Positions 8,305-27,931 of a stretch of 64,000 nucleotides of DNA are shown in pieces (position 1 is the stretch's first letter; every line of letters starts with the position of its first letter). The notes under the pieces were generated by a model. It was given only the letters and a program-made list of their open reading frames with translations, was not told the origin of the DNA and searched no databases. The stretch comes from an uncultured Acidobacteriaceae bacterium. Its GTDB lineage: Bacteria > Acidobacteriota > Terriglobia > Terriglobales > Acidobacteriaceae. The stretch is taken from the NCBI GenBank assembly GCA_963701935.1, contig CAVPBT010000005.1, positions 189,098 through 253,097 of the forward strand. The letters are read 5' to 3'. The translations under genes and the position numbers were made by a program.

Positions 8305-10083
8305 TTATGCCACCACTGAAGTATCCGCCTCCCGATATAGCTCGTCGATCTGCTCGCGATAGCGCGCCTCGATCGCCTTGCGCCGAAGCTTCAACGTTGG
8401 GGTCAGAGTGCCGTCGCTGGCGGTAAATTCATCCGGCACTAGCAGGATCTTTTTCAGCGTCTCGTACCGGGCCAGGCCACGGTTCAGTTCGTCCACAATA
8501 CCTTCATAAAGTGCCTTGACCTTGGGGTGGGCCACCAGTTCTTCGCGGGATGAGAAAGATATTTGGTTGCCGCGCGCCCATTCCTCCAACAACACGAACT
8601 CCGGGGAGATAATCACCGACGCAAATTTTCTTCGGTCTCCCAGCACCACCGCAGTTCCAATCATCGCGTTGAGTTTCAGCGAATTCTCGACCGGCTGCGG
8701 CGCAATAAATTTCCCCCCCGACGTCTTCAGCAGATCTTTTTTGCGATCGGTCACCGACAGAAATCCGTCTTCGTCCAGATTGCCAATGTCTCCGGTCTTA
8801 AACCAGCCATCCACGAAGGCGTCCCGCGTCTCTTCGGGCCGGTTCCAATAGGCACGGAAAATCGAAGGACCGCGCACCAGAATCTCCAGATCGTGCGCAA
8901 TCTGCACTTCAACATTGGGCAGGGGACGGCCCACGGTGCCCATCTTGTGAGCGTGCGGCGTGTTGATTGCGATGACCGGTGAGGTCTCCGTCAGACCATA
9001 GCCTTCATGAATCCGAATGCCGATGTTCGCATACCATGCTGCCAGTTCTCTGCCCAGCGGCGCTCCTCCGGAGACGAATATTTCCACTTGTCCACCCATC
9101 CGCGCCCTGACCTGCGAATACACGAGTTTGCGCGCCAACTTCCACGCCACTGATGCCGGCTCCTTGCCCGCCAGAATCTTAGGCCGGTGGGCCCGTCCTA
9201 CGGAAAGAGCCCAACGGTAAATGGTCTGCTTCGCCAGTCCTTTGGCTTTCTGTTCCACCTGGCTGTAGATCTTTTCGTACACACGTGGCACGGCCACGAA
9301 AATCGTGGGCCGGACCTCCATTAACACTTGCGGCAACTCCTCGATGGAAGGGCAATATGCCAGCGTCACGCCGTTATGCAGCAACGCGATATCCGCATGA
9401 CGCGCCGTAACATGCGACAGAGGAAGAAACGACACACTGACGTGGCCAGGATGAATATCGAAACCGTGCAAAGAGTTCAGCACATTCGAAGTCAAATTCC
9501 CATGCGTCAGTTGTACGCCCTTTGAGGTTCCAGTCGTCCCTGACGTATAGATGATGGACGCGAGGTCGTCAGGAGCGACCGCGTGCGCGCGGGCATCGAG
9601 TTCTGGATCTCGTCCAGCCGGGCCCTTGTGCATCAGTCGCTGCATATGTACCGCATCAGGGGTCTCGGCAGGATCCATCAACACGATCTTCTCGATCGGA
9701 GTCTGGTCGCGGATGGACAGGACCTTTTCCAGTTGCTTCTCCGTGGACACCACCACCACTCTTGCTCCTGAATCGCAAAGAATGTAGGCGGTTTGCTGAG
9801 CCGTGAGGGTCGAGTAGATGGGCACAACCGCAAGCCCCAGCATCAGCGATGCAAAATCGGCGACAGCCCACTCCGGCCGATTCTCGCTTAAGATGGCAAG
9901 GCGGTCCCCCTTGTTCAACCCCCACTGGCTGAGCGCCCGCGCCACACCCGCCACATCGCGGTAAAACTGCTGCGAGCTGATGGGAACCCACGCGGAGCCC
10001 TCGCGAGCCAGCATCACGCGATCTTGCCGGCGCTCCACGATGGCGAAGAAGATGTCATTAAGAGTCTGAGGTTTCGTAGGCAT
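8305..10083 (-). CDS. long-chain fatty acid-CoA ligase (AMP-binding family)
   Basis: It carries AMP-binding motifs IYTSGTTGTSKGV, GYGLTETSP and DRKKDLLKTSGGKFIAPQ. I moved the start to the ATG at 10083, which is preceded by GAGGGGGA. Confidence 0.85.
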   Translation of the reverse strand: MPTKPQTLNDIFFAIVERRQDRVMLAREGSAWVPISSQQFYRDVAGVARALSQWGLNKGDRLAILSENRPEWAVADFASLMLGLAVVPIYSTLTAQQTAYILCDSGARVVVVSTEKQLEKVLSIRDQTPIEKIVLMDPAETPDAVHMQRLMHKGPAGRDPELDARAHAVAPDDLASIIYTSGTTGTSKGVQLTHGNLTSNVLNSLHGFDIHPGHVSVSFLPLSHVTARHADIALLHNGVTLAYCPSIEELPQVLMEVRPTIFVAVPRVYEKIYSQVEQKAKGLAKQTIYRWALSVGRAHRPKILAGKEPASVAWKLARKLVYSQVRARMGGQVEIFVSGGAPLGRELAAWYANIGIRIHEGYGLTETSPVIAINTPHAHKMGTVGRPLPNVEVQIAHDLEILVRGPSIFRAYWNRPEETRDAFVDGWFKTGDIGNLDEDGFLSVTDRKKDLLKTSGGKFIAPQPVENSLKLNAMIGTAVVLGDRRKFASVIISPEFVLLEEWARGNQISFSSREELVAHPKVKALYEGIVDELNRGLARYETLKKILLVPDEFTASDGTLTPTLKLRRKAIEARYREQIDELYREADTSVVA

Positions 10084-10167
10084 GGTTTCCCCCTCACGTC
10101 GCGAAAGGAAGATCATCCGCCGTCCTGAACCGGTGGTTGCGAAGAGCTCTTCTACGTTACTGCTCCG

Positions 10168-10863
10168 CTACTTGAGATGACCCCAGCGAAATGTCGGGCC
10201 AACAGAGAAGCGAATATAGTTCTGCCGGGGTACCAGCAAGTTTGAAAACAGGTGAGTGTTCACCCAATCAGTCGCGAACCGCACGCCAATCTTCCGCGAC
10301 ACGTTGAGGTCGAACCCCCCGCCTAAGCCAAAGAACAGTTCGGTATCGCTCTGATGCGAGTTGGGAATTGGAATCTGCAGGTACCCAAACAAGGGCACCA
10401 GAGGGCTGGGGAAAGCTATATTTGCATTCTCGTGGATTCCGCCAAAGCCGGGGCGTGCAAAGAATGTAACTTTCTGCCACTTGCGCAGGTAGAATTGCGG
10501 TCCTGCGGCAAACGTGTAAGTCCTCGACTTAAACGCCACGGAGATTGAGCTTGCTCCCCCAGGCACTAGTCCCGACTGGTTTATCGCGTTAGCGTAGACG
10601 GTCTCGCTGCCGTTAATGGTTCCGGCACCGCTGATGACGCCGTCGCCCATAATCCCGAAGTCACCGCCCAGACCCAGCCAAGGTCTCACCGTAACTCCGA
10701 AATCCGATTCAAATCCGCGCTCGGTCAGGTTGCGGGCCGGGCTGATCATGTAATCGAAGCCGGTAAACAGTGTGTAGCGGTTAATGTCGGTCTGCTGCGC
10801 CAAAGCGGGCAGACAAATAAGAACTATAAAGCCGCAAAACAGTAAACGTCTCATCGGTCTCAT
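10168..10863 (-). CDS. small outer-membrane beta-barrel protein (OmpW/OMP_b-brl-like)
   Basis: The ATG at 10863 follows AAAGGTGG. The signal peptide is MRPMRRLLFCGFIVLICLPALAQQ. The rest shows an alternating Gly/aromatic-rich beta-strand pattern. Confidence 0.65.
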   Translation of the reverse strand: MRPMRRLLFCGFIVLICLPALAQQTDINRYTLFTGFDYMISPARNLTERGFESDFGVTVRPWLGLGGDFGIMGDGVISGAGTINGSETVYANAINQSGLVPGGASSISVAFKSRTYTFAAGPQFYLRKWQKVTFFARPGFGGIHENANIAFPSPLVPLFGYLQIPIPNSHQSDTELFFGLGGGFDLNVSRKIGVRFATDWVNTHLFSNLLVPRQNYIRFSVGPTFRWGHLK

Positions 10864-11032
10864 GTTCCACCTTTCTGGGAATTCAGTCATAGAGAAGAGA
10901 CTTGCGCCGAAAAAAGAAAAAGACGACTCGAATGCGGTACAGACGACTCTCGTGGTTGGACCTTCCGATACCCTGGCAAACTTCCGAACTCTTCCCATAG
11001 GGGCTACTTCCCTAGCCCTAACTCTCAGCGCA

Positions 11033-12631
11033 CTACGCGACAATCAATTGGGTCAGAGGATTCTCCTGCATGGTCGCTGGACCGGGCTCGAGCACTCTTT
11101 TCGGTTCCAGCAGAGCAATATTGCTCGCCGCTGGAACCGGTGCGACCGCGGTCTTTGTTATTGCCGGCATAGCGATTGAATTCCCGCGCCGTCTCCGGCG
11201 TACTTTCTTCTTCTGCGGTGGCCCGATTCCAACCGAGTCGCGCAATTCCGTGAAGCTCGTCATCAGCAAGCTCTCCAGCCGTCGCAGATCCGGGGCCGCA
11301 TGCACATCTCCACTGAAACCGAAGTAAACCGCGCCGTTGTAGCTTAAGATTGCGCAGTTCACCGCCATCTCTCCGCCCACCGGAACATACGGATAGCAAT
11401 GCAACATCTTGTGTCCGAGCAGGTAGAGCGGAAACTGCGGCCCGGGCACATTCGTGCATACCAGGTTGAAGGGTGTGATGGGCAGTTGGCTCGCGATCGG
11501 ACCGGCCATGCCTTGCACGGAAGTCGGGAACATCCCAATCAGACCGCCCGCCAGGCTAACGAGTTCAGCGGCGTGCACGCGCTTCAGGAATTCGGTTCGA
11601 TGGTGTACGCCTGCCAGCAACTTTCGCGGGCTCCGAATATCTAGCGGAATGGTGACAGGAACCAGCGAAATGCGGTTCCCCAACTCCGTGGTGCTGACGT
11701 CGCCGCGCAAGTTGACAGGAACCATGATCCGAAGCAGTTTTCCCTTCACGCGGTCGCCATGCAGTTCACAGTAACGGCGGATGGTCGCAGTCACCAAAGC
11801 GAGAATCACATCATTGACACTGGTTCCGCTCTTATGACGGATGGCTTTGACGTCCGCCAGCGGAAGTTCGGCGGTGGCAAATTTCTGAGGCCCGGTATAG
11901 ATCACGTTGAACCGCAGTCGCTCGGTAAACGCCGTGATCTCGGGTAGCAGGCCCACAAACTCGTCGCTGGCCACGCTGTCGCCGTTCGCAGCGGCACGTT
12001 CCGTCATGCTCAACAGATCGGTGAGTGCGGAGAGAATCCGCTTCACGAAATCAGAATAGGATTCAACGAACCCTGCGGTCAGCGTCGTCAGCGGGTCGCG
12101 CGGCCGGGGAACCTGCAACTTAATCTTCTTCTTGGGCAAGCGCGGCGCGTCCGGGCTCGCATCCAGAAGCACATTCATGATGCCGACACCCGCAATGCCA
12201 TCCGCCAGGCAGTGGTGCAGTCGGATAATGAGCCCGGTGCGAGCCCCCTTGAGCCCGTGAATGAGTGTGAGATCCCACAATGGGTGTTGCCGGTCCATCA
12301 CGGTGCCAAAAAGCTTTCCGGCAATCCCCATCAACTCTATTTCGGTACCGTGTTTGAGCGTCACCTCGCGCACGTGACGGCGCACATCGAATTCCGGATC
12401 GTACTCCCAACTGGGAAGCCCGAGCCCGAACGGTGCTGGTACGACGCGCTTCAGATAGCGAGGAAGAAGCGGCAGCTTCGTCTCGATGAACTGGACGCAT
12501 TCTTCAAATCCAACTTCGCCCTCGAAGATGCATACGCTTGCTACATTGAGCGGCATGCCTTCCCGCTCAAGATGCAGGAAGACCGTATCACCCCAGGAAA
12601 GGCGGTCACTCTGTTGCTGGTTCTGCATCAC
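11033..12631 (-). CDS. wax ester synthase/diacylglycerol acyltransferase (WS/DGAT)
   Basis: 532 aa. It has the active-site HHCLADG (HHxxxDG) motif, N-terminal ...DTVFLHLE... and C-terminal ...NVPGPQFPLYLLG... typical of the family. Confidence 0.85.
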   Translation of the reverse strand: MMQNQQQSDRLSWGDTVFLHLEREGMPLNVASVCIFEGEVGFEECVQFIETKLPLLPRYLKRVVPAPFGLGLPSWEYDPEFDVRRHVREVTLKHGTEIELMGIAGKLFGTVMDRQHPLWDLTLIHGLKGARTGLIIRLHHCLADGIAGVGIMNVLLDASPDAPRLPKKKIKLQVPRPRDPLTTLTAGFVESYSDFVKRILSALTDLLSMTERAAANGDSVASDEFVGLLPEITAFTERLRFNVIYTGPQKFATAELPLADVKAIRHKSGTSVNDVILALVTATIRRYCELHGDRVKGKLLRIMVPVNLRGDVSTTELGNRISLVPVTIPLDIRSPRKLLAGVHHRTEFLKRVHAAELVSLAGGLIGMFPTSVQGMAGPIASQLPITPFNLVCTNVPGPQFPLYLLGHKMLHCYPYVPVGGEMAVNCAILSYNGAVYFGFSGDVHAAPDLRRLESLLMTSFTELRDSVGIGPPQKKKVRRRRRGNSIAMPAITKTAVAPVPAASNIALLEPKRVLEPGPATMQENPLTQLIVA

Positions 12632-12664
12632 TGCTCTCCCTCGATCATTCGCCCGGCGGGGCGT

Positions 12665-12952
12665 TCAGTTCACGAAAGAAAATCGCCCGGTCAGCTTCAT
12701 CAGCTTGAGGACTTTGTAGACGTCGACATTCACGTCGCGCAAAATAATCTTGACGCTCTTCTCATCGGCCACTCGGGCAAGCTCTTCCAAAGCCCGCACT
12801 GCACCCGAATCGATGCGTACTACGGAAGACAAATCCAGTACTGCCTCGCCTTCACTGCCGTCCAATTTCTCGCCCGCCTCGCGCAGGGCCGCAACCACGC
12901 GCGCTTCATCAATGTTCAGAAACACTGCATTCATTGCCATAGGCTCCGCCAT
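12665..12952 (-). CDS. STAS-domain protein (SpoIIAA/anti-sigma antagonist-like)
   Basis: 95 aa with the ...AVLDLSSVVRIDSGAVRALEELA... pattern. It lies 3 nt after the adhE stop and 33 nt before the WS/DGAT start. Confidence 0.75.
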   Translation of the reverse strand: MAEPMAMNAVFLNIDEARVVAALREAGEKLDGSEGEAVLDLSSVVRIDSGAVRALEELARVADEKSVKIILRDVNVDVYKVLKLMKLTGRFSFVN

Positions 12953-12955
12953 TCT

Positions 12956-15623
12956 TCAGACAGTAATGTGCTCGACGGTGCTGCTCACCGTCCCCGCACC
13001 TCGTCCTTCATAAGCCTTCCAGAACAACTCGACCAGTTCCGTCATCAGAGGCATCCGGGGGTTCGAACGCCACGACGGATCTTCAAACGCAATTCGGGCC
13101 AGTTCGGGGACGGCCCGTTCGAATTCCTCTTTGGAAATTCCCAGTTCAGCGATCGATCGCGGAAATCCCAACAAATCGAGCAACTGCTCTGTCGCCGCGA
13201 TCAGGTTGTTTACCTTTTCATCGACGGTATGTCCGCCCAGACTCAGCTGATCCGCGACCGTCGCGTACTTCTTGTGTGCCGTGTACCCTTTCGTGTAAGG
13301 CGACGGCATGAACTTGGTGGGGACCGCGGCGTTGTAAGCAATCACGTGCGGCAGCATGAGCGCGTTGGCGCGCCCGTGCGCGACGCCGAAGCGTGCTCCA
13401 AAAGCGTGAGCCAGGGCGTGGTTCACTCCTACCGAAGCATTCGAGAACGCCATCGCCGCAATGCAGGCGGCATTGTGCATCATAGATCGAGCTTCTTCAT
13501 CCCGGGGATGCTCATAGGCAATCGGCAGATACTTGAATACCAACCGAATCGCCTGCATGGCGCTGGAATCGGTGTAGGGCGAAGCATAGTTCGAAACTCC
13601 TGCCTCCAAGGCATGGGTCAGGCAATCAATCCCGGTATCCGCGGTTAAGCCCTTCGGCATGGTCATCACGAACTGCGGATCGACAATGGCGACATCCGGG
13701 GTCAGGGAGTAATCGGCCAGCGTGACTTTGCGCCCGCTTTCCTTGTCTGTCAGGACCGCGAACGGTGTGACTTCGCTTCCTGTGCCGCTGGTGGTTGAAA
13801 TCGCGATGAGTCTCGCCTGGTTCGCTTTCTCCGTTGGATAGCGCGCGACCCGCTTGCGCAAATCCAGGAAGGGCGCCGCCAGATATTCCAGATCGGCCTC
13901 CGGCGATTCGTACTTGAGCTTCATGATCTTCGCCGCGTCAATGACCGACCCGCCGCCCAGCGCGATGATCTGGTCCGCCTTATAGAAATTGAGCGCCTCC
14001 ACTCCCAACGCGATGACCTTCACTTCGGGCTCTGCATCCGGAATCACCTGCACATGGACGTGAGTCTTGGGACAGATGTGGCGCCGAACGATATCAACAT
14101 GTCCCATCTGCTCCAGGAGCGGGCTGGTCACGATGATGGTGGATAGCGACGGAAACTGCCGCAGGTTCTCCACCGCATTCATGTTGAAGTAGATCTGATT
14201 GGGAACCCGGAACCACATATGGTTTTGTGTCCTCCGAGCCACGCGCTTGATGTTGAGGTAATGAAAAACGTTGACATTATCGGTGGTGCTGTTGCCGCCG
14301 CCGGTTCCGCATCCGAAGGAAAACGTCGGCACCAGGTCGTTGTAAACCGCTCCCAGCGCTCCGATCGATCCCGGTGAATTGACGATGATGCGTCCCGCAT
14401 TGATCACTTGGCCAAATTTGCGAATGACCTCTTCGTTGCGCGAGAACACAACCGCCGTATGCCCAATTCCCCCGGCATGGTTCACGTCGACACATACTCG
14501 CAGTGCCTCAGCTACGGATTTCGCTCGATAGACCGCCAGTACCGGAAATAACTTCTCGACCGACAGCGGATGCTCGCGGCCCACACCCTGAATCGGCGCA
14601 ATCAGCAGCTTGGTATCAGGCTTCACCTTCAGGCCGACGAAGCGTGCGATATCAGCAAGCCTTCTGGCCAACCGCCATGGGCTGCATGAATCCGGTCTCC
14701 GGATCAATTACCGTGCGCTCGAGCAGCTTCGTTTCTTTGTCGTTGCAGATGTGTGCTCCCAGGTCCGCGAATTTCTTCAGCACGGCGTCATAAATCTCGT
14801 CGTCGATGACCACCGTCTGTTCAGACGCGCAAATCGTTCCGTTGTCGAACGTCTTGGAAACGATGATGTCCACCACGGCCGTGTTCACGTCGGCCGTCTT
14901 CTCCAAATAAACTGGCGTATTACCAGCCCCAACACCCAAGGCCGGTTTGCCGGAGCTGTAGGCGGCCTTGACCACGCCCGGTCCACCGGTGGCGTCGATC
15001 AGCCCGATATCCTTGTGCTTCATCAGGTAGGCGTTGTCGGGAAGCGTCGGCGATTCGAGGCAAGTAAACACGCCCTCCGGCGCACCGTGTTTCACGGCCG
15101 CCTCATACATGATCCTTACCGCTTCTGCACAGCAATGCCACGCCTTCGGGTGCGGACTGAAAATAACCGCGTTCCGCGTCTTGATGGCCATGATGCACTT
15201 GAACAAGACCGTGGATGTGGGATTCGTAATCGGAGTCAGCGAGAAGAGAACGCCGATCGGTTCCGCCATCTCGATCAAATTGCGCTCCGGAATCTCGCGG
15301 ATCACGCCGACCGTGCGCTTGTCCTTCACGTAGTTGTAGACAAACTCGCTGGCCACCATGTTCTTGATGACCTTGTCTTCCAGCACGCCGAGCCGGGTTT
15401 CCTCCACCGCCAGCCGCGCAAGATATTGAGCTTGTGCCAGCCCCGCCAGAACCATCGGTTTAACGATCCGATCGACATCCTCCTGAGTAAACTGGCTGAA
15501 CACCGCAGCAGCGGTTCTGGCCTGACTGACCAGTCCTTCGAGGTAGGCGATCCGTTCCGCGCTCAGACCTTCAACCGCCAGCGGAATTTGAACTCGTTCT
15601 TTTACGACGTCAGCTACGGTCAT
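12956..15623 (-). pseudogene. adhE: bifunctional acetaldehyde-CoA/alcohol dehydrogenase AdhE, interrupted by one frameshift (as sequenced)
   Basis: Two abutting ORFs (15623-14652, 323 aa; 14707-12956, 583 aa) overlap in different frames. The joined length is 2668 nt (3n+1). Motifs include GGIGHTAVVFS, GCGTGGGNSTTDNV and ISTTSGTGSEVTPFAV. The inferred junction is ...PMAVGQK/LADIARFVGLKVKPDTK. Confidence 0.85.
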
Positions 15624-15905
15624 CGCTTCCTCCGTTGGGCTTGTTCAGGAACGATCTGCCGCACGAGTGTGCATGGCTGGACATATCATCCGGATTAGCG
15701 TTCGGAGTCGGGACCTACCGCGTCTGTCGCGCGCACGAATCTCGCAATTCCATCGGAAATCGGATCATCGTGGGAGTTCGCGTCAGGTGTGAGAACAACT
15801 TCGGAGGTGTCGGCTGTCTGGGATCCGGGGAGCACGAGAGTTCAGCCTCGTCCCAAAGTAGAACTCCCAAACTTGGCTTGGTCAGCAACCACTGTCACGT
15901 GGCCC

Positions 15906-15921
15906 TGTGATGAACATCACA
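15906..15921. promoter_or_regulatory. CRP/FNR-family type palindrome TGTGATGAACATCACA
   Basis: A perfect TGTGA-N6-TCACA (also TGTGAT-N4-ATCACA) lies in the 356-nt gap upstream of adhE. Confidence 0.5.
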
Positions 15922-15979
15922 CGGTTTTCCTTGGGGCAGAAACACTACGGGTATCGGATTCGTGACACCTGCCGCGGCG

Positions 15980-17698: not shown

Positions 17699-19492
17699 TT
17701 AAGCGACCACATACTTCCCGGTCTCGATGACTTTCTGGGCAATGGCCTGCCGCAGCGATACTGTGTTGAACGGCTCGTACTTGCACAGCCGCCGCAAAAT
17801 CGCCAGCTGCGACCGCAGCATGTCGCCATCGGCGCACGCGGCAATGACCATCCTCGCCGCGCTTTCGATCTTCTCCATCGCACCCGACATGTAGACGCGG
17901 GTCATCGCCACAGCGTGCCCTGACCCCGCTTCGCCATGCTTCGCGGCCAGTTTCTGCGCGCGCAGCACGGCGGACTCCATGGCATAGGTTTCGATCGTCA
18001 TGTTCGCGATCGCACCCATAATCTCCTGCTGATCCTGAATCGCCTGCATGTATTTCTGAGTCGCAATGCCGGCGGCGAAGAGGCCGATCTTCTTTGCCGT
18101 CGCCACCAGTTTGCGTTCTTGAGCAAGAAGCCCTTCCTCGCCCTCGTCTGACGTCCCCGACAGGACCTCATCCATCAGCTTCTTGATCGCCGCCATCAAT
18201 GGAAGTTGCCCAGACATGGCACGCTTCAGCAAAAAACCGGTGATGAGCAGCCGGTTGATTTCGTTCGTGCCTTCGAAGATCCGGTTCACCCTTACGTCCC
18301 GGTAGTTGCGTTCGGCGGGATATTCCTCGACGAACCCATACCCGCCGTAGATCTGCACCGATTCATCGACGACGTAGTCGATGAACTCCGATCCCCATAC
18401 TTTGAGAATCGAGCATTCCACGGCATATTCATCGATCACCTTGCGAACCTGCGCCATGTCTTTGTGCTGCTCCCCGAGTTGCGCAATAGCGGCATCCATC
18501 ATGCCGACGGTGCGATACGCCATGGCCTCCCCGGTGAAGATGCCTGCCGCCATGTTCGCCAGCTTCTCGCGGATCAAGCCGAAATCCGCAATCACTTTCC
18601 CGAACGCCTTGCGCTGCTTGGCATACGCGATCGCACTCTCAATGCAGTTCCGCGCTGAGCCCACGCATCCTGCACCCAGTTTGAACCGTCCCACATTCAG
18701 AACGTTAAATGCAATGTGGTGCCCCTTGCCGATCTCGCCAAGCACATTCTCCACCGGGACCTGGCAATCGTTGAGAATCAGTGGACACGTCGACGATCCT
18801 CGGATCCCCATCTTGTGTTCTTCCGCGCCCACCGAAAATCCCGGGAACCCGCGCTCCACGATAAAAGCGGTGAACTTATCGCCGCTCACCTTGGCAAACA
18901 CGATGAACAGGTCGGCGAACCCGGCATTGGTGATCCACATTTTTTCGCCGTTCAATACATAGTGCTTGCCGTCGGCCGACAACTTCGCCTGCGTGCGGCA
19001 ATTCAGAGCATCCGATCCCGACGATGACTCCGACAACGCATAGGCGCCGACAGTCTCCCCGCTGGCCAGCCCTGGCAGATATTTCTTCTTCTGTTCTTCC
19101 GTACCGAAGTAAACGATGGGCAGAGTCCCAATGCAGGTGTGAGCGCCCCACGTCGTGCTGAAGCCGCCGTACTTTGCGATCCGGTCCGCGATGATGGCGG
19201 AAGTGACCTTATCCATCTCCATGCCGCCGTACTGCTCGGGCACATCCACACCGCTCAACCCGAGTTCTCCAGCCTTCTTCACCAGTTCTCGGACAATGGT
19301 GAAGTTCTTGTGCTCCATGTTTTCAATGTTGGGAACGATTTCCTTGATGGCAAATTCTTCCGCAGTTTGGGCGATGAGTCGATGCTGCTCGCTAAAATCT
19401 TCTGGAGTAAAAACATCTTCCGGCGCCCGCTCCTCGATCAGGAAACTGCCGCCGCGGATCTTGCTACCCGGTATTGCAGTGACCGTAGCCAT
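17699..19492 (-). CDS. acyl-CoA dehydrogenase (long FadE-like form)
   Basis: 597 aa. The ACAD core includes ...GAYALSESSSGSDA...KMWITNAGFADLFIVFAK...YRDVRVNRIFEGTNEI..., followed by an extra C-terminal helical domain. Confidence 0.9.
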   Translation of the reverse strand: MATVTAIPGSKIRGGSFLIEERAPEDVFTPEDFSEQHRLIAQTAEEFAIKEIVPNIENMEHKNFTIVRELVKKAGELGLSGVDVPEQYGGMEMDKVTSAIIADRIAKYGGFSTTWGAHTCIGTLPIVYFGTEEQKKKYLPGLASGETVGAYALSESSSGSDALNCRTQAKLSADGKHYVLNGEKMWITNAGFADLFIVFAKVSGDKFTAFIVERGFPGFSVGAEEHKMGIRGSSTCPLILNDCQVPVENVLGEIGKGHHIAFNVLNVGRFKLGAGCVGSARNCIESAIAYAKQRKAFGKVIADFGLIREKLANMAAGIFTGEAMAYRTVGMMDAAIAQLGEQHKDMAQVRKVIDEYAVECSILKVWGSEFIDYVVDESVQIYGGYGFVEEYPAERNYRDVRVNRIFEGTNEINRLLITGFLLKRAMSGQLPLMAAIKKLMDEVLSGTSDEGEEGLLAQERKLVATAKKIGLFAAGIATQKYMQAIQDQQEIMGAIANMTIETYAMESAVLRAQKLAAKHGEAGSGHAVAMTRVYMSGAMEKIESAARMVIAACADGDMLRSQLAILRRLCKYEPFNTVSLRQAIAQKVIETGKYVVA

Positions 19493-19703
19493 ATTCCTTC
19501 TCCCTCAGAACAATTGACTCGTGGGTTTCGGTTCAGCTCAGGACTCAAGCATCAGTCAGCGGCGACGGGGTTCATCTCTCCCTGCCGAGCCTCGCTCCCG
19601 AGATCGTGCGCAATGGCGCCCTCGGGCGAAAGTCTGTCTCTCGCCCGAAGACGCATAGGCCTTAATCAAGGCTCTGAACACTGTTAACAACAGATCCGGC
19701 CCC

Positions 19704-20618
19704 TCAGGCTACGGCCGCTGCCGCCTTCTTCACCGGCCGACGGGTATGGCGCTCCACCTTTGCCGCGGGCTTCGCTCCACCCGGTGTTTTCACCATGACG
19801 TCCATCAACTGCTTCTGGGCATCGACGTAGCTCTTTACTGCCTCCCGCGTGAGTTCGGTTACGGGAAGAAACGGAAACGGCTTCAGCAATTCCAGGGTCT
19901 TGCCTGCCGTTTTCACACCGGTGTTCATCTGCCGCCCCACAACGTCCATCAACCGCTTCTGCGCTTCCAGGAACGCATCCGTGGCTTTGCGCGCCAGTTC
20001 CGGCAACTCGGTCTTCTTCATTTTCTTTCCAGCGTTGCTGTGTTTGGTACCTGTCGCCCTCGCAGTCTCGTCGGCAAGGACGTCCATAAACTTCTTCTGC
20101 GCCTTGACGAAGTTCTCCATGCCCTCGCGGGCTAGATCGACCGCATGCTCCGGCTGGTAGGGCTTGCCGGCCTTGGCGGACTCTACCCAGGCATGCGTTT
20201 GCTTGCCGGCGATCTTCAGATACTCTTCCTGCATCTCGATGAACGTCTCCACGCTGCGCCGCAGCAGATCGGTCATCGCGTGCGCCGCGGGCCAGTCGCC
20301 CATCCGTTCCTTCACACCTGTGATCAGAAGTTCATTCTGCTGTTTGCCCAGTTCGAGCAGAACCTTCTGTCCTTCCAGGAAATTCGTCAGGCCATCTTCT
20401 GCGATCTCGCCGAGAATGGCGGTAGGAGAATGATGCGGGTCCGAGAGTTGCTGACGTACGGCGTGCATCACGCTGGCATTCTGCCGCATGGCCAGGTCGA
20501 TCAGGATCCGTTGCGTCGCGAATAATGTTTGCGCCCCTTGCTGCGCCCAACCCGAAAGCAGAGAGAGCGTCGACGACTCTTTCGGGTGAGTCGCTTCATG
20601 CCTTGTTGCCGCTGCCAT
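19704..20618 (-). CDS. phasin-like repeat protein (paralogue 1)
   Basis: The ATG at 20618 follows a GGAGG. The longer MLQCSN... start is the operator palindrome read as codons. Helical modules F-x-x-AQK-x-[LF]-MDV are repeated (NFVKAQKKFMDV, AFLEAQKRLMDV, SYVDAQKQLMDV). The protein has a basic tail and lies next to phaR. Confidence 0.6.
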   Translation of the reverse strand: MAAATRHEATHPKESSTLSLLSGWAQQGAQTLFATQRILIDLAMRQNASVMHAVRQQLSDPHHSPTAILGEIAEDGLTNFLEGQKVLLELGKQQNELLITGVKERMGDWPAAHAMTDLLRRSVETFIEMQEEYLKIAGKQTHAWVESAKAGKPYQPEHAVDLAREGMENFVKAQKKFMDVLADETARATGTKHSNAGKKMKKTELPELARKATDAFLEAQKRLMDVVGRQMNTGVKTAGKTLELLKPFPFLPVTELTREAVKSYVDAQKQLMDVMVKTPGGAKPAAKVERHTRRPVKKAAAAVA

Positions 20619-20632
20619 AAAATGCCTCCGAT

Positions 20633-20647
20633 TGCTGCATTGCAGCA
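20633..20647. promoter_or_regulatory. perfect palindrome TGCTGCATTGCAGCA, candidate PhaR operator (copy 1)
   Basis: This 7-1-7 palindrome has a CTGC-N3-GCAG core. It lies between the predicted -10 and the RBS of the phasin-like gene, about 70 nt from the divergent phaR start. Confidence 0.6.
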
Positions 20648-20655
20648 TCAGCTAA

Positions 20656-20684
20656 ACTATACGAAGAGAAGGGTCTTGTGTCAA
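20656..20684 (-). promoter_or_regulatory. sigma70-type promoter of phasin-like gene 1
   Basis: On the minus strand it reads TTGACA (20684-20679), a 17-nt spacer, then TATAGT (20661-20656). The operator begins 8 nt further downstream. Confidence 0.5.
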
Positions 20685-20718
20685 GATATTCCTGCATCCT
20701 TGTGCAAGGCAGCATGCA

Positions 20719-21255
20719 ATGGCGTCCATGAAACCCTCAACCATCCTCGTCAAGAAGTACGGCAATCGACGGTTGTACGACACAACCAGCAGCCGTTACG
20801 TGAACCTTGACGATCTTGCGGCTCACATCCGCGCGGGCCGCGAGGTCAAAGTCGTCGACGCCAAGACCGGGCAAGACCTGACCCGCGTCCTGTTGACGCA
20901 GATCATCACCGAAGACGCCAGGGACAAGCCGACGGGCTTACCCCTGGAACTGCTGCGGCAACTCATCATCGCGTCCGATGAGGTGCGGCAGGAATTTCTC
21001 ATGTGGTATCTGAAGTCCGCGTTTGACACGTATGAGAAGGTGCAGGATGCCGTGCAGAACCGCCTGAGCGAGGTCCAGTCCGCCATCCTCTCCCCCGTCG
21101 ATATGATGAAACGCTTTCTGGGAACGGGCGCCTCTCCGCCTTCGCGCGCGGACTCGGAGCCGGAGGTTGAGGCCCTGCGCAAGCGCGTCGCGGAACTCGA
21201 GGCCCGTCTGAAAAAGCCCGCGCCCGCGAAGCGCCGCGCCCGCAAGAAGCATTGA
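20719..21255 (+). CDS. phaR: polyhydroxyalkanoate synthesis repressor PhaR
   Basis: 178 aa. The N-terminus ...ILVKKYGNRRLYDTTSSRYVNLDDLAAHIRAGREVKVVDAKTGQDLTRVLLTQII... is the PHB_acc_N/PhaR DNA-binding signature. Confidence 0.85.
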   Translation: MASMKPSTILVKKYGNRRLYDTTSSRYVNLDDLAAHIRAGREVKVVDAKTGQDLTRVLLTQIITEDARDKPTGLPLELLRQLIIASDEVRQEFLMWYLKSAFDTYEKVQDAVQNRLSEVQSAILSPVDMMKRFLGTGASPPSRADSEPEVEALRKRVAELEARLKKPAPAKRRARKKH

Positions 21256-21291
21256 ATTTTGGTTCAGCGTGGAACACAACCATCTTGGGGC

Positions 21292-21340
21292 GTCATCCTG
21301 AGCGGAGCCGTTTTTCAGGCGAAGCGAAGGATCTCTCGCG
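21292..21340 (+). repeat. REP-like element GTCATCCTGAGCGG...CGAAGGATC (copy A)
   Basis: It is intergenic, after the phaR stop. It shares its termini with inverted copies at 55084-55150 and 59804-59849. Confidence 0.5.
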
Positions 21341-21383
21341 CTCCGAGCACAAACTAGGCCAAACACTACCCGGAAAATCTCTC

Positions 21384-21426
21384 TTGGACAGGCAAGGCAC
21401 TCGGGGTATAATTTTGCAGTGCAGCA
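21384..21426 (+). promoter_or_regulatory. sigma70-type promoter with overlapping degenerate PhaR-type site
   Basis: TTGGAC (21384-21389), a 17-nt spacer, then TATAAT (21407-21412). TTTTGCAGTGCAGCA (21412-21426) matches the palindrome at 12 of 14 arm positions. Confidence 0.5.
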
Positions 21427-21435
21427 ACCGCCCTT

Positions 21436-22284
21436 TTGGCGCCTCGACGCGCCGATCGGGCTGACCCAGGGACGAACTTGCGGCGTAAATTGAAAAAAGC
21501 AGCAGCGCGTCCTTCTCCGGCCAAGCGGCGCAAGCCTGCTCCCTACCCCAAAGTCAACACTTCCAGTGCTTGGACTGAGGCGCTCTTCGGCGCTGAGATT
21601 CTTCTGCTGCACGCCACGCCGGTGTACTACGGCCTGGGAGTGCCGCGCGGCGATGGCTCCGCTGTCGTCATCATTCCCGGTTTTCTTGGTACTGATCTTT
21701 ACCTTACCGAGTTGCATGCATGGCTGCGGCGGATCGGATATCGCCCTTACTTTTCCGGTATCGGCATCAATGCTGAGTGTCCCAACCTGCTCATCCAGCG
21801 CCGGCTGAATCAGACGATCGAAAAAGCGCTGTCGGAAACAGGACGCAAGATTCACCTGATCGGTCACAGCCTCGGCGGCGTAATCGCGCGATCCGTGGCG
21901 GGCGATCGGCCGAAAGACGTGGCCTCGGTCATCACTCTGGCCGCCCCGATCCGTGGCACAGTTGCGAATCGAGCCGTGCTTCGCGCCGCCGAAGCTGTTC
22001 GCCTCCGCATTCTCGAGGAACACGGCAAGGGAGTTCTTCCGGACTGTTATACCGGACGCTGCACCTGCAATTTTCTCGATTCTCTTCACCGCCGGGTTGC
22101 CAGCAAGATGCTCGAGACGGCTATCTACACGCGCCAGGACGGCATCGTCGACTGGCGCTATTGCATGACCATGGATCCTGAGAAGGACGTGGAAGTTCCG
22201 GGAACCCACATCGGAATGGCATTCAACCCGGCAGCCTATGCCGTGGTTGCGGAGCGCCTCGCCAAAGCGCAATCGACCGAATAG
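21436..22284 (+). CDS. alpha/beta hydrolase (lipase/esterase-like)
   Basis: It has the nucleophile elbow GHSLGG inside ...KIHLIGHSLGGVIARSVAG.... The basic N-terminal region has a TTG start, so the start is uncertain. Confidence 0.75.
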   Translation: MAPRRADRADPGTNLRRKLKKAAARPSPAKRRKPAPYPKVNTSSAWTEALFGAEILLLHATPVYYGLGVPRGDGSAVVIIPGFLGTDLYLTELHAWLRRIGYRPYFSGIGINAECPNLLIQRRLNQTIEKALSETGRKIHLIGHSLGGVIARSVAGDRPKDVASVITLAAPIRGTVANRAVLRAAEAVRLRILEEHGKGVLPDCYTGRCTCNFLDSLHRRVASKMLETAIYTRQDGIVDWRYCMTMDPEKDVEVPGTHIGMAFNPAAYAVVAERLAKAQSTE

Positions 22285-22313
22285 ATCCGCCAATTCTCTT
22301 CGGCCACGCCAGT

Positions 22314-23274
22314 TCAGCCCACCATCTCTAGAACCGCGCCGGTAGCGGTTTCCAATCTCTCGGTCTGTCCGCTCGCTGTCTGCAACAGAACGGACGCGGA
22401 TGCCAGGCTGTTGTTCACCACTTCGAAGCTGCCCGTGCAATCGGTCTTCATATAAGGAAGCCGATGCAGGCTTGAGCCATGCCTGTCGAGCGCCGCCTCC
22501 AGCCGGAGCCCCTCGCGTGCCACGCAAGAAAAATTCCACCGGAAAGGGCTCCTTACTGACGCTGGATTCCTTCAACTTGCGAAACAAATATTTCTGCCTG
22601 TCGTGCCACAGCACCGCTTTGCGAAAAACCAGCCCAAACGGCATCTCGTAGACCAGAGCCTCTAATGTGCTTGCCGGTTGGTCGGGGCGGAGGAAATATG
22701 CGTGCGTCCATCTCCAGAAATTGCGATGCCGGTATCCACAGTTGTGCCCCTGCACTCCGAAACCCACAGGCTCACCCGCGAAGGGTTTCCCATCAAGCGT
22801 GATCTGCCCGGAGAAAAGCGCGTCCGAGTGCGGCGTGCGTGAAAAGCCGATCCAGCCTTTATCGCTGAGTGTCACCGCAAATGTGGACCGATAGCGCAGA
22901 TTCCATGAGATTGTGTGGCCGTCAACTTCCATCGATCCCCTGCAGGAATCGTCTCCGATGAAGTTGTCGCCGGCGCAAAAGTGAAATGGACTCAGGCCTC
23001 TCCGGCTGATGTCTAACCCCGCCAGCGGAAATCCCTGAATAAAGCTCTGCGGTTTTCCACCCGCCGGGAACCATGTCGCCCACACTTGCACGGGCATCCC
23101 TCGAGGGTTTCCGGCGCAACCGCCTCGTCCCGGATTCATCAACAAATAGCGAAACCACCAAGCTCCGCTTGCGTCCGCCAATCCCACGCGAAGAAACCAG
23201 ACCTCATAGCGGCGCTTTACCGACGGTCCCGAAAATACTTCGTTCAGAGAGGCCACGACTTTCTCCAAAGACAC
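22314..23274 (-). pseudogene. hypothetical beta-rich protein (tentatively tocopherol-cyclase/AttH-like), one frameshift as sequenced
   Basis: The first ~250 codons of the 778-aa ORF (from 23274) look protein-like: YEVWFLRV, WWFRYLLMNP, GVQGHNCGYRHRNFWRWTHAYF. The plausible C-terminus continues in the 22523-22314 frame (WNFSCVAREGLRLEAAL...). The total length is 961 nt (3n+1). Confidence 0.5.
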
Positions 23275-23369
23275 CCTAGACTATCTCACAGGGCTTCGAC
23301 CGGTCCGGTGATGCCGGTCACTGCGGATCCTGCAACTGCAGCCCATAGTGTGATCGGTATCTCACCTCT

Positions 23370-25056: not shown

Positions 25057-25088
25057 ACCGACGGCCGCCCATCACAGATCCACAGCGC

Positions 25089-25844
25089 TTAAACCGCCAC
25101 AGTCTTCGGCCGATGCGCTGTGCGAGCCCGGGCATGTTTGGGAGCCCGTCCGTTGTGCTTTTTCGGCGGCTTGATGATCGACCCAAAGATCGACGTCTCC
25201 GAGTCAAAGAAGTTCTTCACGCCTTGGCCGGTTCGAGTCGCAATTGGTAAGAGCTGAGAAGGCGACACCAGCCCCATCGTTCGAGTCGCCGCGTCCAGGT
25301 TCACGTTCATCTGCTGGCCCATGACGTCGAGCAAACGCTTCTGCGCCTCGACAAAAGCATTTCCCGCCTCGCGCGCCAGTTGCGCCAGTTCAGTCTTCTT
25401 CGCCGCCTTATCTTCGTGAGGCTTCTTGCCGCCGGTTGCCCTCGCGGCCTCCTGCGTCACCGCTTCGAGGAATTTCTTCTGAGCGCGAGTAAAGGTCTCC
25501 ATTCCCTCGCGGGCAAATTCGACGACCTGAGCCGCGCGGTCATCCTTCCCCGCTTTCTCTGACTCCAGCCAATGCAGCGTCTGTTTGCTGGTGGTGGTCA
25601 GCAGCTCCTGCTGCATGCCGAAGAGCGTATCCAGGCTGCGCTGTACGAGGCCTGTCACTGCAACTGCCGGCATGAAGCCGCCAATCCGCTCTTTGACTCC
25701 ATTGCAGATAATGTCGTTCTCCTGTTGTGCCAGGTTGAGAAAAGCTCGCTGTGCTTCCACGAGACTCGACGTTCCCTCAACTGCCAACTCGGTGAGAATC
25801 GCCAGGGGGGATTCATTTTCGTGGTTCTTGGTGTGGGTTGGCAT
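25089..25844 (-). CDS. phasin-like repeat protein (paralogue 2)
   Basis: The ATG at 25844 follows a GGAGG. It has the same repeat modules as paralogue 1 (TFTRAQKKFLEAV, AFVEAQKRLLDVM) and a basic tail. The upstream operator copy explains the ORF-track extension. Confidence 0.6.
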   Translation of the reverse strand: MPTHTKNHENESPLAILTELAVEGTSSLVEAQRAFLNLAQQENDIICNGVKERIGGFMPAVAVTGLVQRSLDTLFGMQQELLTTTSKQTLHWLESEKAGKDDRAAQVVEFAREGMETFTRAQKKFLEAVTQEAARATGGKKPHEDKAAKKTELAQLAREAGNAFVEAQKRLLDVMGQQMNVNLDAATRTMGLVSPSQLLPIATRTGQGVKNFFDSETSIFGSIIKPPKKHNGRAPKHARARTAHRPKTVAV

Positions 25845-25855
25845 AATGCCTCCAT

Positions 25856-25870
25856 TGCTGCATTGCAGCA
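25856..25870. promoter_or_regulatory. perfect palindrome TGCTGCATTGCAGCA, candidate PhaR operator (copy 2)
   Basis: It is identical to copy 1, and the shared identity extends over the 18-mer ATTGCTGCATTGCAGCAT (25854-25871). Confidence 0.6.
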
Positions 25871-25878
25871 TTAATTGA

Positions 25879-25907
25879 AATGTAGTATCCACGCGCCTTC
25901 CAGTCAA
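25879..25907 (-). promoter_or_regulatory. sigma70-type promoter of phasin-like gene 2
   Basis: On the minus strand it reads TTGACT (25907-25902), a 17-nt spacer, then TACATT (25884-25879). The operator follows after 8 nt. Confidence 0.5.
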
Positions 25908-27929: not shown

Positions 27930-27931
27930 GC

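Follow-up and report, generated by a model that had tools for sequence, protein, structure and literature searches.

A PhaR/phasin-type regulatory circuit, possibly attached to neutral-lipid metabolism, in a gene cluster of uncultured Acidobacteria

Sequence comparison identifies a conserved gene cluster, carried by uncultured peat and soil Acidobacteria (Terriglobales and related Acidobacteriota), in which a PhaR-family repressor and phasin-like proteins are accompanied by enzymes of fatty-ester metabolism. We put the chances at about even that the cluster encodes an autoregulatory circuit of the PhaR/phasin type that is coupled to the metabolism of neutral lipids (fatty esters) and not of polyhydroxyalkanoates (PHA). 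It was analyzed in a 64-kb stretch of DNA (hereafter, the window) from an uncultured Terriglobales acidobacterium, a Ca. Sulfotelmatobacter-like MAG, and in 89 related loci, all of them from MAGs: 81 close loci and 8 distant ones, whose phasin-like protein is ~30% identical to that of the window. The features of the window are listed in Table 1. An earlier note on this DNA gave the order, strands and coordinates of these genes correctly, both for the run from 20618 down to 8305 and for the genes adjacent to it. Its description of the eight-gene run as being without a break does not hold, since gaps of 211, 356 and 178 nt are present; no operator was found at the 211-nt and 356-nt gaps.

Table 1. 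Genes and putative regulatory sites of the cluster (positions in the window).
Feature	Position	Strand	Evidence or remark
Long-chain acyl-CoA ligase (FadD11-like)	8305-10116	-	AMP-binding 264 bits, AMP-binding_C_3
Small outer-membrane beta-barrel with signal peptide	10168-10854	-	OMP_b-brl 27.5 bits
WS/DGAT acyltransferase	11033-12628	-	TIGR02946, WS_DGAT_cat, WS_DGAT_C
STAS-domain protein, between AdhE and WS/DGAT	12665-12952	-	STAS_2 32.1 bits, STAS 30.9 bits
AdhE, bifunctional acyl-/acetaldehyde-CoA and alcohol dehydrogenase	12956-15623	-	split ORFs 14652-15623 and 12956-14707
GMC flavoprotein oxidoreductase	15980-17659	-	GMC_oxred_C, GMC_oxred_N, NF058674
Long acyl-CoA dehydrogenase (ACAD), FadE type, VLCAD-type C-terminal domain	17699-19492	-	NF058590
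Phasin-like amphipathic repeat protein 1	19704-20618	-	six repeats of ~45 aa
PhaR-type operator 1 (putative)	20633-20647		perfect palindrome TGCTGCAtTGCAGCA
Sigma-70-like promoter, phasin-like 1	20656-20684	-	TTGACA-17-TATAGT, 11/12 consensus matches
PhaR-family repressor gene phaR	20719-21255	+	PHB_acc_N; divergent from phasin-like 1
Promoter-like site of hydrolase gene	21385-21426	+	TGGACA-16-TATAAT, then imperfect operator TTTTGCAGTGCAGCA
Lipase-like alpha/beta hydrolase	21478-22284	+	GHSLG motif
All-beta AttH-like-fold protein	~22317-23274	-	tblastn, structure model
ABC1/UbiB-family atypical kinase	23370 to ~25050	+	ABC1 91.3 bits
Phasin-like amphipathic repeat protein 2 (paralogue)	25089-25844	-	42% identity to phasin-like 1
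PhaR-type operator 2 (putative)	25856-25870		palindrome identical to operator 1, TGCTGCAtTGCAGCA
Promoter-like site, phasin-like 2	25879-25907	-	TTGACT-17-TACATT, 9/12 consensus matches

At both phasin-like genes, a 15-bp perfect palindrome, TGCTGCAnTGCAGCA, separates a sigma-70-like promoter from the ribosome-binding site; operator 1 follows closely on the -10 element of the phasin-like 1 promoter. The palindrome includes the published PhaR operator CTGC-N3-GCAG and matches the PhaR sites CTGCNNNGCAG and YGCRNYGCR, which have been defined by experiment (PMC12542648). With zero mismatches, it occurs only twice in the 64 kb, at the two phasin-like promoters. The same layout recurs in all 89 related loci, including relatives that are only ~30% identical. 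The phasin-like gene is preceded by the palindrome in 81/81 close and 8/8 distant loci, as is the second paralogue in 43/43; in every case a -10-like element comes before the palindrome and the ribosome-binding site after it. The -10-like element of the phasin-like 1 promoter, CGTATAGT, is kept in relatives, and a TTGACA-17 spacing was seen for the window and for the eight distant loci. The promoter of the hydrolase gene is trailed by a similar but imperfect operator, TTTTGCAGTGCAGCA, and 25 of 79 loci, mostly closer relatives of the window, have a TGCANTGCA core between phaR and the hydrolase gene. PhaR control of both phasin-like genes, as the earlier note had proposed, is backed by this perfectly conserved predicted operator.

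The repressor itself contains a PHB_acc_N domain (PF07879; residues 10–68, 91.4 bits, cutoff 25), but falls short of the NCBIfam equivalog TIGR01848 (96.4 bits; cutoff 109.45). No match to the C-terminal granule-binding repeats of PHB_acc (PF05233) was detected in the window protein at E≤0.01, and precomputed Pfam matches for the adjacent PhaR homologues of nine loci (L001, L082, L083, L085, L086, L089 and L091–L093) consist of PF07879 only. The phaR gene adjoins a phasin-like gene in 81/81 loci.

The two phasin-like proteins are indeed paralogues, as previously suggested, with 42% identity between them, and both appear to consist of strongly amphipathic helical repeats (hydrophobic-moment z of 6.0 and 3.4 for proteins 1 and 2, respectively). 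Six long helices are predicted for protein 1, whose structure model does not show a stable fold. Both window proteins miss the Phasin_2 threshold. Protein 1 reaches 16.5 bits against Phasin_2 (PF09361; cutoff 24.9) and 18.8 bits, also below cutoff, against PHA_synth_III_E, and protein 2 has no Pfam match at E≤0.01. Among 38 diverse sequences of the family, comprising both window proteins plus 36 relatives, 11 show below-threshold matches to Phasin_2 (best E of 3.8e-5) and seven show weak matches to ApoB100_C. A precomputed PF09361 match exists for some distant relatives and is graded 'faint' in both that were looked up. All 1824 homologues of protein 1 are annotated as 'hypothetical' or bear evidently spurious automatic names.

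The hydrolase, present in 79/81 close and 7/8 distant loci, matches PGAP1, Abhydrolase_1, Palm_thioest and LCAT near cutoff, with Lipase_2 and Lipase_3 also among the matches at E≤1. The closest sequences of solved structures in the PDB are triacylglycerol lipases (E∼1e-6). None of the PHB depolymerase families in Pfam was matched at E≤1; the enzyme is thus triacylglycerol-lipase-like and not PHB-depolymerase-like. The adjacent all-beta protein had been regarded as possibly tocopherol-cyclase-like. This assignment is not borne out: an unbroken relative has no Pfam match at E≤1, PF14249 included, and no Pfam or NCBIfam model matched either this relative or the frameshifted window copy. An AF2 model of medium confidence (pLDDT 65.8, pTM 0.69) gave AttH (2ich; E of 2.7e-7), kievitone hydratase and a 25-phosphosteroid lyase as the top Foldseek matches, with a probability of 1.0 but TM-scores of 0.35–0.46 only, so that the model suggests an AttH-like fold and nothing more specific. 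The kinase next to it, called ABC1/UbiB before, belongs to the ABC1 family (PF03109, 91–92 bits); with the UbiB models it stays far under cutoff (104.9; cutoff 487.55), and it is no UbiB equivalog. It is found in 46/81 close and 5/8 distant loci.

Three genes of the window, those of AdhE, the AttH-like protein and the ABC1 kinase, each contain one single-base insertion, near 14655, 22548 and 24624, respectively. A public assembly with 99.8% identity has all three genes unbroken, as do relatives. The full-length AdhE has 888 aa in L001, L002 and L089, the AttH-like protein, whose frame change was located by tblastn, has 315 aa in its unbroken copy in L002, and the unbroken kinase has 561–566 aa.

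WS/DGAT was recognized correctly in the earlier note: it passes the TIGR02946 cutoff (336.6 against 309.95), scores 158.9 bits with WS_DGAT_cat and 92.7 bits with WS_DGAT_C, and has the catalytic HHxxxDG motif as HHCLADG at residue 139. The best NCBIfam match of the acyl-CoA ligase is FadD11 (359 bits, under the cutoff of that model). The small barrel, just short of the OMP_b-brl cutoff (27.5 against 28.7 bits), has a signal-peptide-like N-terminus, MRRLLFCGFIVLICLPALAQQ, and is possibly an uptake channel for hydrophobic substrates; it adjoins the ligase in L085, L091, L092 and L093. The ACAD contains Acyl-CoA_dh_N, _M and _1 domains as well as Acyl-CoA-dh_C, and matches NF058590 with 868 bits (cutoff 600). 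The GMC oxidoreductase passes NF058674 (883.9; cutoff 850), a 'cholesterol oxidase ChoxAB' model whose seed is an Acinetobacter 'cholesterol oxidase' (PMC8409315). By HMM, AdhE looks like the canonical acetaldehyde/ethanol type (NF010378, 1151 against a cutoff of 951 for the L002 copy). It is the only reductase in the locus, where no fatty acyl-CoA reductase of the FAR/Acr1 type was seen.

Synteny in relatives had been named as a point to check; this neighborhood is conserved there and re-assorted in distant lineages. Among the 81 close loci, phaR occurs in 81, the hydrolase in 79, AdhE in 69, ACAD in 67, WS/DGAT in 65, STAS in 64 and the ligase in 61; AdhE, STAS and WS/DGAT occur as a trio in 64, and a comparable arrangement is seen in L091. 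The GMC oxidoreductase is found in 36, and it, the ABC1 kinase and the barrel are each absent from about half. The core of PhaR, phasin-like protein and lipase-like hydrolase is nearly invariant among related loci. In distant lineages, the same lipid-gene families surround this core in different orders and orientations, and WS/DGAT is linked to it in two distant loci. L085 contains ABC1, PhaR, phasin-like protein, hydrolase, HMG-CoA reductase, WS/DGAT, ligase and OMP; L091 contains hydrolase, AdhE, a 91-aa protein without Pfam match, WS/DGAT and then ETF genes. Hydrolase, ligase and OMP are found in L092 and L093, with glyoxylate-shunt genes nearby in L092. No WS/DGAT lies within 10 kb of the PhaR-phasin core in L082, L086, L092 and L093. 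The downstream flank of L083 ends inside a large PKS gene.

The absence of phaC from the 64 kb, noted earlier, holds by both Pfam and phmmer. No PhaC_N or PhaC-type match was obtained among 34 ORFs of the window scanned with Pfam, which include nearly all those of at least 400 aa, and a Pfam-verified PhaC query gave zero phmmer matches at E≤10 in the 1.84 Mb of window and loci. A synthase just outside the window had been named as a point to check, and no PhaC is present in the 10 kb past either end. PhaA/B-type and PHB-depolymerase family proteins were likewise not found in the 89 related loci or in 84 kb of this genome (the window plus 10 kb past either end). A phaC may lie unlinked elsewhere in these genomes; phasin genes of known PHA producers are frequently not linked to it. 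Since a PHA regulator stands beside WS/DGAT with no PHA synthase nearby, the circuit may govern fat droplets.

We propose, with less assurance than for the attachment to neutral lipids as such and at somewhat below even chances, that Terriglobales and related Acidobacteriota do not make PHA and have re-used the PhaR switch and phasin-like coats for droplets of wax esters, TAG or fatty-acid ethyl esters, with the lipase, ABC1 kinase and AttH-fold enzyme as droplet-associated partners. In the neutral-lipid reading as such, the ligase would activate fatty acids, part of them perhaps imported via the barrel, and WS/DGAT would join these to diacylglycerol or to an alcohol, which could be a fatty alcohol or AdhE-derived ethanol, giving a hydrophobic droplet; we infer that the inclusion is lipid. 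As in PHA systems, the hydrophobic surface so formed might titrate PhaR away from its operators, which would relieve repression of the coat proteins and, at a later stage, of the lipase; with the surface covered, PhaR would return to DNA. The store could be mobilised by the lipase, ACAD/ETF and the GMC oxidase. If the proposed re-use is true, PhaR would govern a lipid-droplet system here for the first time, and peat and soil bacteria would have a widespread carbon-storage route, possibly also a redox sink via AdhE.

The cluster could instead be an ordinary PHA-granule regulon with the synthase elsewhere, where PhaR senses PHB, PHB granules carry the repeat proteins as divergent phasins, and the lipid genes are further PhaR targets (carbon-flux control) or mere neighbors. 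The PHB_acc_N domain, the canonical operator, the sub-threshold similarity to Phasin_2 and PhaE together with the precomputed PF09361 matches in some relatives, and the four distant loci that have the core without WS/DGAT within 10 kb all fit such a regulon. The PhaR regulon of S. meliloti extends far past PHA (PMC12542648), and thus a PhaR site beside lipid genes is no proof of lipid-droplet sensing. Nevertheless, this reading appears rather unlikely, given that PhaC, PhaA/B-type and PHB-depolymerase proteins are missing throughout the loci and flanks searched, the near-invariant hydrolase is lipase-like, and all recurrent partners are fatty-acid or ester enzymes. In other Acidobacteriota, though of different classes, part of the PHA pathway was missing and Raman did not detect PHA (PMC8100337).

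We consider it improbable that the repeat proteins are soluble or membrane-associated apolipoprotein-like carriers, or stress proteins, that help to take up and catabolize hydrophobic substrates from outside the cell (by the barrel, ligase, lipase, ACAD/ETF and GMC alcohol/sterol oxidase), with the PhaR homologue answering a lipid or acyl-CoA signal and not a granule surface. The ApoB100_C matches, the modeled repeat protein that lacks a stable fold, the fit of the GMC protein to a cholesterol-oxidase model and the glyoxylate-shunt genes near one core point in this direction, as does the pair of ligase and barrel, the commonest partners in distant loci. However, WS/DGAT, linked to the core in most close and two distant loci, is a synthetic, storage-forming enzyme; the trio of repressor, coat and hydrolase parallels the logic of PhaR, PhaP and PhaZ; and we know of no precedent for ligand-type sensing by PhaR. 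Finally, the cluster may be phylogenetically inherited without functional coupling past the PhaR-phasin pair. Since a single order accounts for most of the 81 loci, their shared synteny can reflect descent, and the GMC, ABC1 and barrel genes are each missing from about half of them. The re-association of the same families around the core, where the phasin-like protein is only ~30% identical to that of the window, makes this very improbable.

The fatty-ester circuit favored here has its nearest counterpart in the PhaR-PhaP(-PhaZ) circuit of Cupriavidus necator, Paracoccus denitrificans, Rhodobacter sphaeroides and Sinorhizobium meliloti (AniA). Common to both are the PHB_acc_N repressor, whose gene adjoins its target, an operator with CTGC-N3-GCAG / YGCRNYGCR overlapping the promoters of genes for amphipathic proteins that form, or here would form, an abundant coat, and a site at a hydrolase gene. 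In contrast to PHA-granule circuits, no PHA synthase or PHA-specific enzyme is nearby, the coat-like proteins (250–300 aa, six repeats) stay below the Phasin_2 threshold, PhaR is under the TIGR01848 cutoff and without detectable PHB_acc, the hydrolase is lipase-like, and the partners are WS/DGAT, acyl-CoA ligase and ACAD. The wax-ester/TAG pathways of Acinetobacter, Marinobacter and Alcanivorax share WS/DGAT with HHxxxDG and an acyl-CoA ligase. However, their alcohol is supplied by fatty acyl-CoA reductase and PhaR/phasin-type control is undescribed there, whereas in this cluster WS/DGAT has a canonical AdhE and a STAS protein as fixed neighbors.

In Rhodococcus (MLDS/MLDSR, TadA), a small regulator is encoded beside the gene of the major lipid-droplet protein, and TAG bodies are formed via WS/DGAT. 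We take that system, from a different phylum, to be like this locus in concept; to our knowledge, the protein families are unrelated. Plant plastoglobules also combine an ABC1-family kinase with lipid-ester enzymes, coat-like proteins and a beta-barrel enzyme-like protein. Of the plastoglobule-like composition suggested by the earlier note, ABC1 stands as the sole demonstrably shared family, and Tocopherol_cycl is not matched here; no Pfam family was returned for the coat-like proteins, and hence no fibrillin family either. The likeness is thus a loose analogy of composition and not a homology of systems. The PhaR-PhaP logic of PHA granules is known already; what is new here is a PhaR/phasin-type circuit that seems to be tied to neutral-lipid metabolism.

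A candidate PhaR operator is shared by the two genes for coat-like repeat proteins, phasin-like 1 and its paralogue phasin-like 2. A perfect 15-bp palindrome, TGCTGCAtTGCAGCA, lies upstream of both, and these are its only two zero-mismatch occurrences in the 64 kb. Each copy is located a few bases 3' of a sigma-70-like promoter and just 5' of a GGAGG ribosome-binding site. Within the palindrome lie CTGC-N3-GCAG, the experimentally determined target of Rhodobacter sphaeroides PhaR, and the YGCRNYGCR core, which was defined for Sinorhizobium meliloti PhaR and confirmed by EMSA (PMC12542648). At the first paralogue, it is found between a -10-like CGTATAGT element and the ribosome-binding site in all 81 close loci from related genomes, with variable flanks. 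At the second, the motif occurs at most 60 nt upstream in 43/43 loci having a true second paralogue. All eight distant loci, an orphan copy included, show the arrangement TTGACA-17-TAnAnT, T[G/A]CTGCAnTGCAG[C/T]A and ribosome-binding site, in front of repeat proteins that are only about 30% identical. This conservation amounts to a strong phylogenetic footprint of a putative operator, from which we infer binding by PhaR.

Features of the locus. Gene counts are from tblastn of window proteins against the 81 close loci, where some absences reflect truncated contigs or insertions that move genes beyond the 10-kb flank.
Feature	Position	Strand	Basis or remark	Close loci
Acyl-CoA ligase	8305-10116	-	HMM	61/81
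Small barrel with signal peptide (OM barrel)	10168-10854	-	HMM	34/81
WS/DGAT	11033-12628	-	TIGR02946 above cutoff; HHCLADG present	65/81
STAS	12665-12952	-	HMM	64/81
AdhE	12956-15623	-	HMM; frameshifted in window	69/81
GMC oxidoreductase	15980-17659	-	NCBIfam 'cholesterol oxidase ChoxAB', 884 vs cutoff 850	36/81
Long ACAD	17699-19492	-	HMM	67/81
Phasin-like 1	19704-20618	-	304-aa repeat protein	
CTGC-N3-GCAG in phasin-like 1	20254-20264		...DLLRRS... stretch	67/81
Palindrome, phasin-like 1	20633-20647		TGCTGCAtTGCAGCA	81/81
Promoter, phasin-like 1	20684-20656		TTGACA-17-TATAGT, 11/12 consensus positions	
phaR	20719-21255	+	HMM	81/81
Third site	21412-21426		TTTTGCAGTGCAGCA, imperfect	
Alpha/beta hydrolase	21478-22284	+	GHSLG	79/81
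All-beta protein	about 22317-23274	-	frameshifted in window	77/81
ABC1 kinase	23370 to about 25050	+	frameshifted in window	46/81
Phasin-like 2	25089-25844	-	paralogue of repeat protein	43 (true second paralogue)
Palindrome, phasin-like 2	25856-25870		TGCTGCAtTGCAGCA	
Promoter, phasin-like 2	25907-25879		TTGACT-17-TACATT	
153-aa hypothetical protein	26031-26492	+	no Pfam match	42/81, same position
Histidine biosynthesis operon	26476-32349		complete-looking	

The third site lies directly 3' of the hydrolase promoter (TGGACA-16-TATAAT), and the TGCANTGCA core at this promoter is kept in 25 of 79 loci, mostly closer relatives of the window. The additional CTGC-N3-GCAG within phasin-like 1, and another within ABC1 in 24 loci, lie in coding sequence and are probably coding coincidences rather than operators. 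One distant locus (L083) carries two phasin-like genes (5486-6394 and 10001-10909) with an identical stretch of ~100 nt upstream, comprising promoter and operator, which indicates that gene and control region were recently duplicated as a unit.

The gene order, strands and coordinates proposed in the earlier note were borne out by an ORF listing and HMM scans of the window. The eight genes from phasin-like 1 to the ligase, described there as an unbroken co-directional run, are indeed co-directional, but are interrupted by gaps of 211, 356 and 178 nt. A terminator scan identified no convincing terminators between them, the count being that of shuffles. One-base insertions disrupt AdhE (~14655), the all-beta protein (~22548) and ABC1 (~24624). 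These genes are intact (888, 260 and 561 aa, respectively) in a separate assembly, ENA ERZ25039512 contig_15623 (1.78 Mb), which is 99.8% identical to the window. Further single-base indels distinguish the two assemblies at 26593 and 50284, an indel in the window splits a MacB/FtsX permease (840 aa in the ERZ25039512 record), and the error in hisA is seemingly on the contig_15623 side. Since indels are present in both assemblies, the frameshifts look like mistakes in a long-read MAG consensus rather than pseudogenes, and a decaying locus could be dismissed given the intact genes. The segment at 53.5-57.4 kb is more divergent (98.8% identity), with many substitutions at multiples-of-three spacing, which suggests strain-level variation or recombination. 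It falls within a run (51667-61275) of three class-III aminotransferase genes alternating with aldehyde dehydrogenases, plus an amino-acid permease, that looks like polyamine or GABA-type catabolism.

The 153-aa protein is encoded divergently from phasin-like 2 and may be part of the module, because its position is conserved. The histidine operon, called from Pfam matches on the gene calls of one related record (L089) and from ORF order, directly adjoins the locus and forms its right-hand boundary in this genome.

The proposed gene neighbourhood is conserved in relatives, as seen both in the tblastn counts and in partners that recur in the distant loci. The latter weigh more, because synteny within one order may be inherited.

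Gene content of the eight distant loci
Locus	Genes
L082 and L086	PhaR, phasin-like, hydrolase only
L083	second paralogue, ABC1, unannotated 319-aa protein, PhaR, phasin-like, hydrolase, Fe-S/CCG, ETF, ACAD, giant PKS
L084	orphan copy
L085	ABC1, PhaR, phasin-like, hydrolase, HMG-CoA reductase, WS/DGAT, ligase, OM barrel
L091	ABC1, ligase, OM barrel, LeuA/HMGL-like gene, 79-aa ORF, unannotated 252-aa protein; PhaR, phasin-like, hydrolase, AdhE, 91-aa protein, WS/DGAT, Fe-S/CCG protein, ETF
L092 and L093	ABC1, PhaR, phasin-like, hydrolase, ligase, OM barrel

These gene orders therefore define an invariant core of PhaR, phasin-like protein and hydrolase, and the recurrent partners are all fatty-acid or ester enzymes. 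The 91-aa protein of L091, which has no Pfam match, occupies the position of STAS in the window. An HMG-CoA reductase (L085, 11914-13464) lies beside the core and adjoins WS/DGAT, a giant multi-domain PKS (L083, 17933-20909) follows ETF/ACAD beside the core, and isocitrate lyase and malate synthase of the glyoxylate shunt (L092, 16489-20649) are found near it. With such neighbours, the lipid products may be isoprenoids or polyketides, and fatty acids may flow to glyoxylate.

In the repeat proteins, a unit of about 45 residues with the motif ..F..AQK..h.D. occurs six times; structure prediction gives six long helices but no confident tertiary fold (AlphaFold pLDDT 39). Their amphipathicity is far above that of shuffled controls (z = 6.0 and 3.4). 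Both window proteins, called phasin-like earlier, fall below the Phasin_2 threshold in Pfam scans. Among 38 diverse members, sub-threshold matches were obtained to Phasin_2 (11), ApoB100_C (7) and PHA_synth_III_E (6). Some distant members have precomputed Phasin_2 matches, 'faint' in the two looked up, and a profile search of PDB sequences with the family gave no meaningful match. The proteins are best described as a putative divergent, phasin-related amphipathic repeat family that is not Phasin_2 by the Pfam criterion. The homologues (1824 at 90% clustering; 383 representatives at 50%) have no Pfam domain, and their names are either 'hypothetical' or plainly spurious automatic ones; those with a named source come from Ca. 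Sulfotelmatobacter, Terriglobales, Ca. Acidoferrum and Bryobacteraceae. When one genome per GTDB species was scanned, relatives were detected in 344 stretches, using an alignment of 11 closer sequences as query, as the 38-sequence alignment has no sufficiently conserved stretch. The best 80 of these 344 loci all belong to peat and soil MAGs classed as Acidobacteriaceae or Terriglobales.

In an intact relative, AdhE scores as a canonical bifunctional acetaldehyde-CoA/alcohol dehydrogenase (1151 vs cutoff 951), and the locus encodes no dedicated fatty acyl-CoA reductase. Because the AdhE-STAS-WS/DGAT trio is fixed, a role for AdhE as alcohol supplier is suggested: it would provide ethanol, and hence fatty-acid ethyl esters, or alcohols of greater length should it accept long acyl-CoAs. 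For the GMC oxidoreductase, a long-chain or isoprenoid alcohol is a possible substrate. The genus Acinetobacter is well known for making wax esters. The one paper found under 'cholesterol oxidase ChoxAB' deals with such an enzyme from a strain of Acinetobacter (PMC8409315). In HMM comparison, ABC1 falls far short of the UbiB equivalogs. The all-beta protein has 2598 homologues, all hypothetical, and its suggested likeness to tocopherol cyclase is unsupported as a family assignment; it matches no sequence family, even at E <= 1 for an intact relative. Its medium-confidence model (pLDDT 65.8, pTM 0.69) is closest by Foldseek to AttH NE1406, kievitone hydratase, fungal pericyclases and 25-phosphosteroid lyase (E 2.7e-7 to 1e-4, TM only 0.35-0.46). 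The predicted fold is of the double-barrel type serving hydrophobic substrates, and the protein may thus be a lipid-handling barrel enzyme, a level at which the original suggestion is possibly right. A literature search on a link between tocopherol cyclase and AttH yielded nothing useful.

The 64 kb contain no phaC, as previously noted: Pfam detected no PhaC among 34 scanned window ORFs, which covered nearly all those of at least 400 aa. A phmmer search with C. necator PhaC (PhaC_N and Abhydrolase_1 by Pfam) found none at E <= 10 in 5200 stop-to-stop segments from 91 sources (1.84 Mb), and tblastn against the 81 loci was negative too. No PhaC family member was found in the 10 kb beyond each window end, where a phaC cluster just outside the window would lie. 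The possible alternative is a PHA system whose phaC is unlinked, elsewhere in the genome; its lipid genes would fit the many non-PHA genes under PhaR control in S. meliloti (PMC12542648). The closest solved sequences to the hydrolase are true triacylglycerol lipases, namely one from Burkholderia and the LipA enzymes of P. aeruginosa and B. subtilis (E ~1e-6), with no match to a PHB-depolymerase family at E <= 1. In PhaR, the DNA-binding domain alone is recognisable; HMM scans placed the protein below the TIGR01848 cutoff and did not detect a PHB_acc domain. In 50 Acidobacteriota MAGs of other classes, the PHA pathway is incomplete, and PHA was unseen by Raman (PMC8100337). Because of the lack of PhaC in the sequences searched, the lipase-like hydrolase, these PhaR features and the Acidobacteriota data, the evidence leans towards neutral lipid as the stored inclusion.

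For such a neutral-lipid store, a mechanism may be proposed by analogy with PhaR-PhaP-PhaZ. PhaR on its operators at the transcription start region would repress the coat genes and the lipase gene. Formation of a hydrophobic body by WS/DGAT would draw PhaR to the body surface, allowing expression of the coat genes, and PhaR would return to DNA once the surface is fully coated. The store would be fed by the ligase and OM barrel, and mobilised by the lipase, ACAD/ETF and GMC oxidase. This switch is plausible for lipid droplets because PhaR binding to hydrophobic polymers is non-specific, and the C. necator phasin PhaP1 has reportedly been shown on TAG bodies in Rhodococcus.

Acidic soils and peat are dominated by Acidobacteriota, whose carbon-storage physiology is, to our knowledge, almost unknown. 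Surveys infer PHA producers from the PhaR domain (bioRxiv 10.1101/2024.12.02.626346); one preprint tallies WS/DGAT and PhaR separately in Acidobacteria, with PhaR as PHA proxy. Literature searches on PhaR or phasins in connection with Acidobacteria, wax esters or lipid droplets turned up no earlier description and no paper on PhaR or phasin-type control of WS/DGAT loci. If PhaR governs neutral-lipid bodies in Acidobacteriota, the PHA proxy misassigns them, the bodies would be a candidate source for bacterial neutral-lipid fatty acids in soil, and the PhaR surface-titration switch would extend beyond polyesters. The phasin-like family, found without annotation in 344 species-level genomes, is widespread in an important phylum. 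A set of operator, promoter and coat protein is now defined for testing, with lipid-droplet engineering as a possible use.

In its presumed working, the locus resembles the PhaR-phasin circuit. Unlike the PHA system, it falls short of the Phasin_2 threshold and the TIGR01848 cutoff, and has no detectable PHB_acc domain and no phaC in view. Although the MLDS/MLDSR families are, as far as we know, unrelated to the proteins of this locus, the Rhodococcus MLDS/MLDSR system is close to it in concept.
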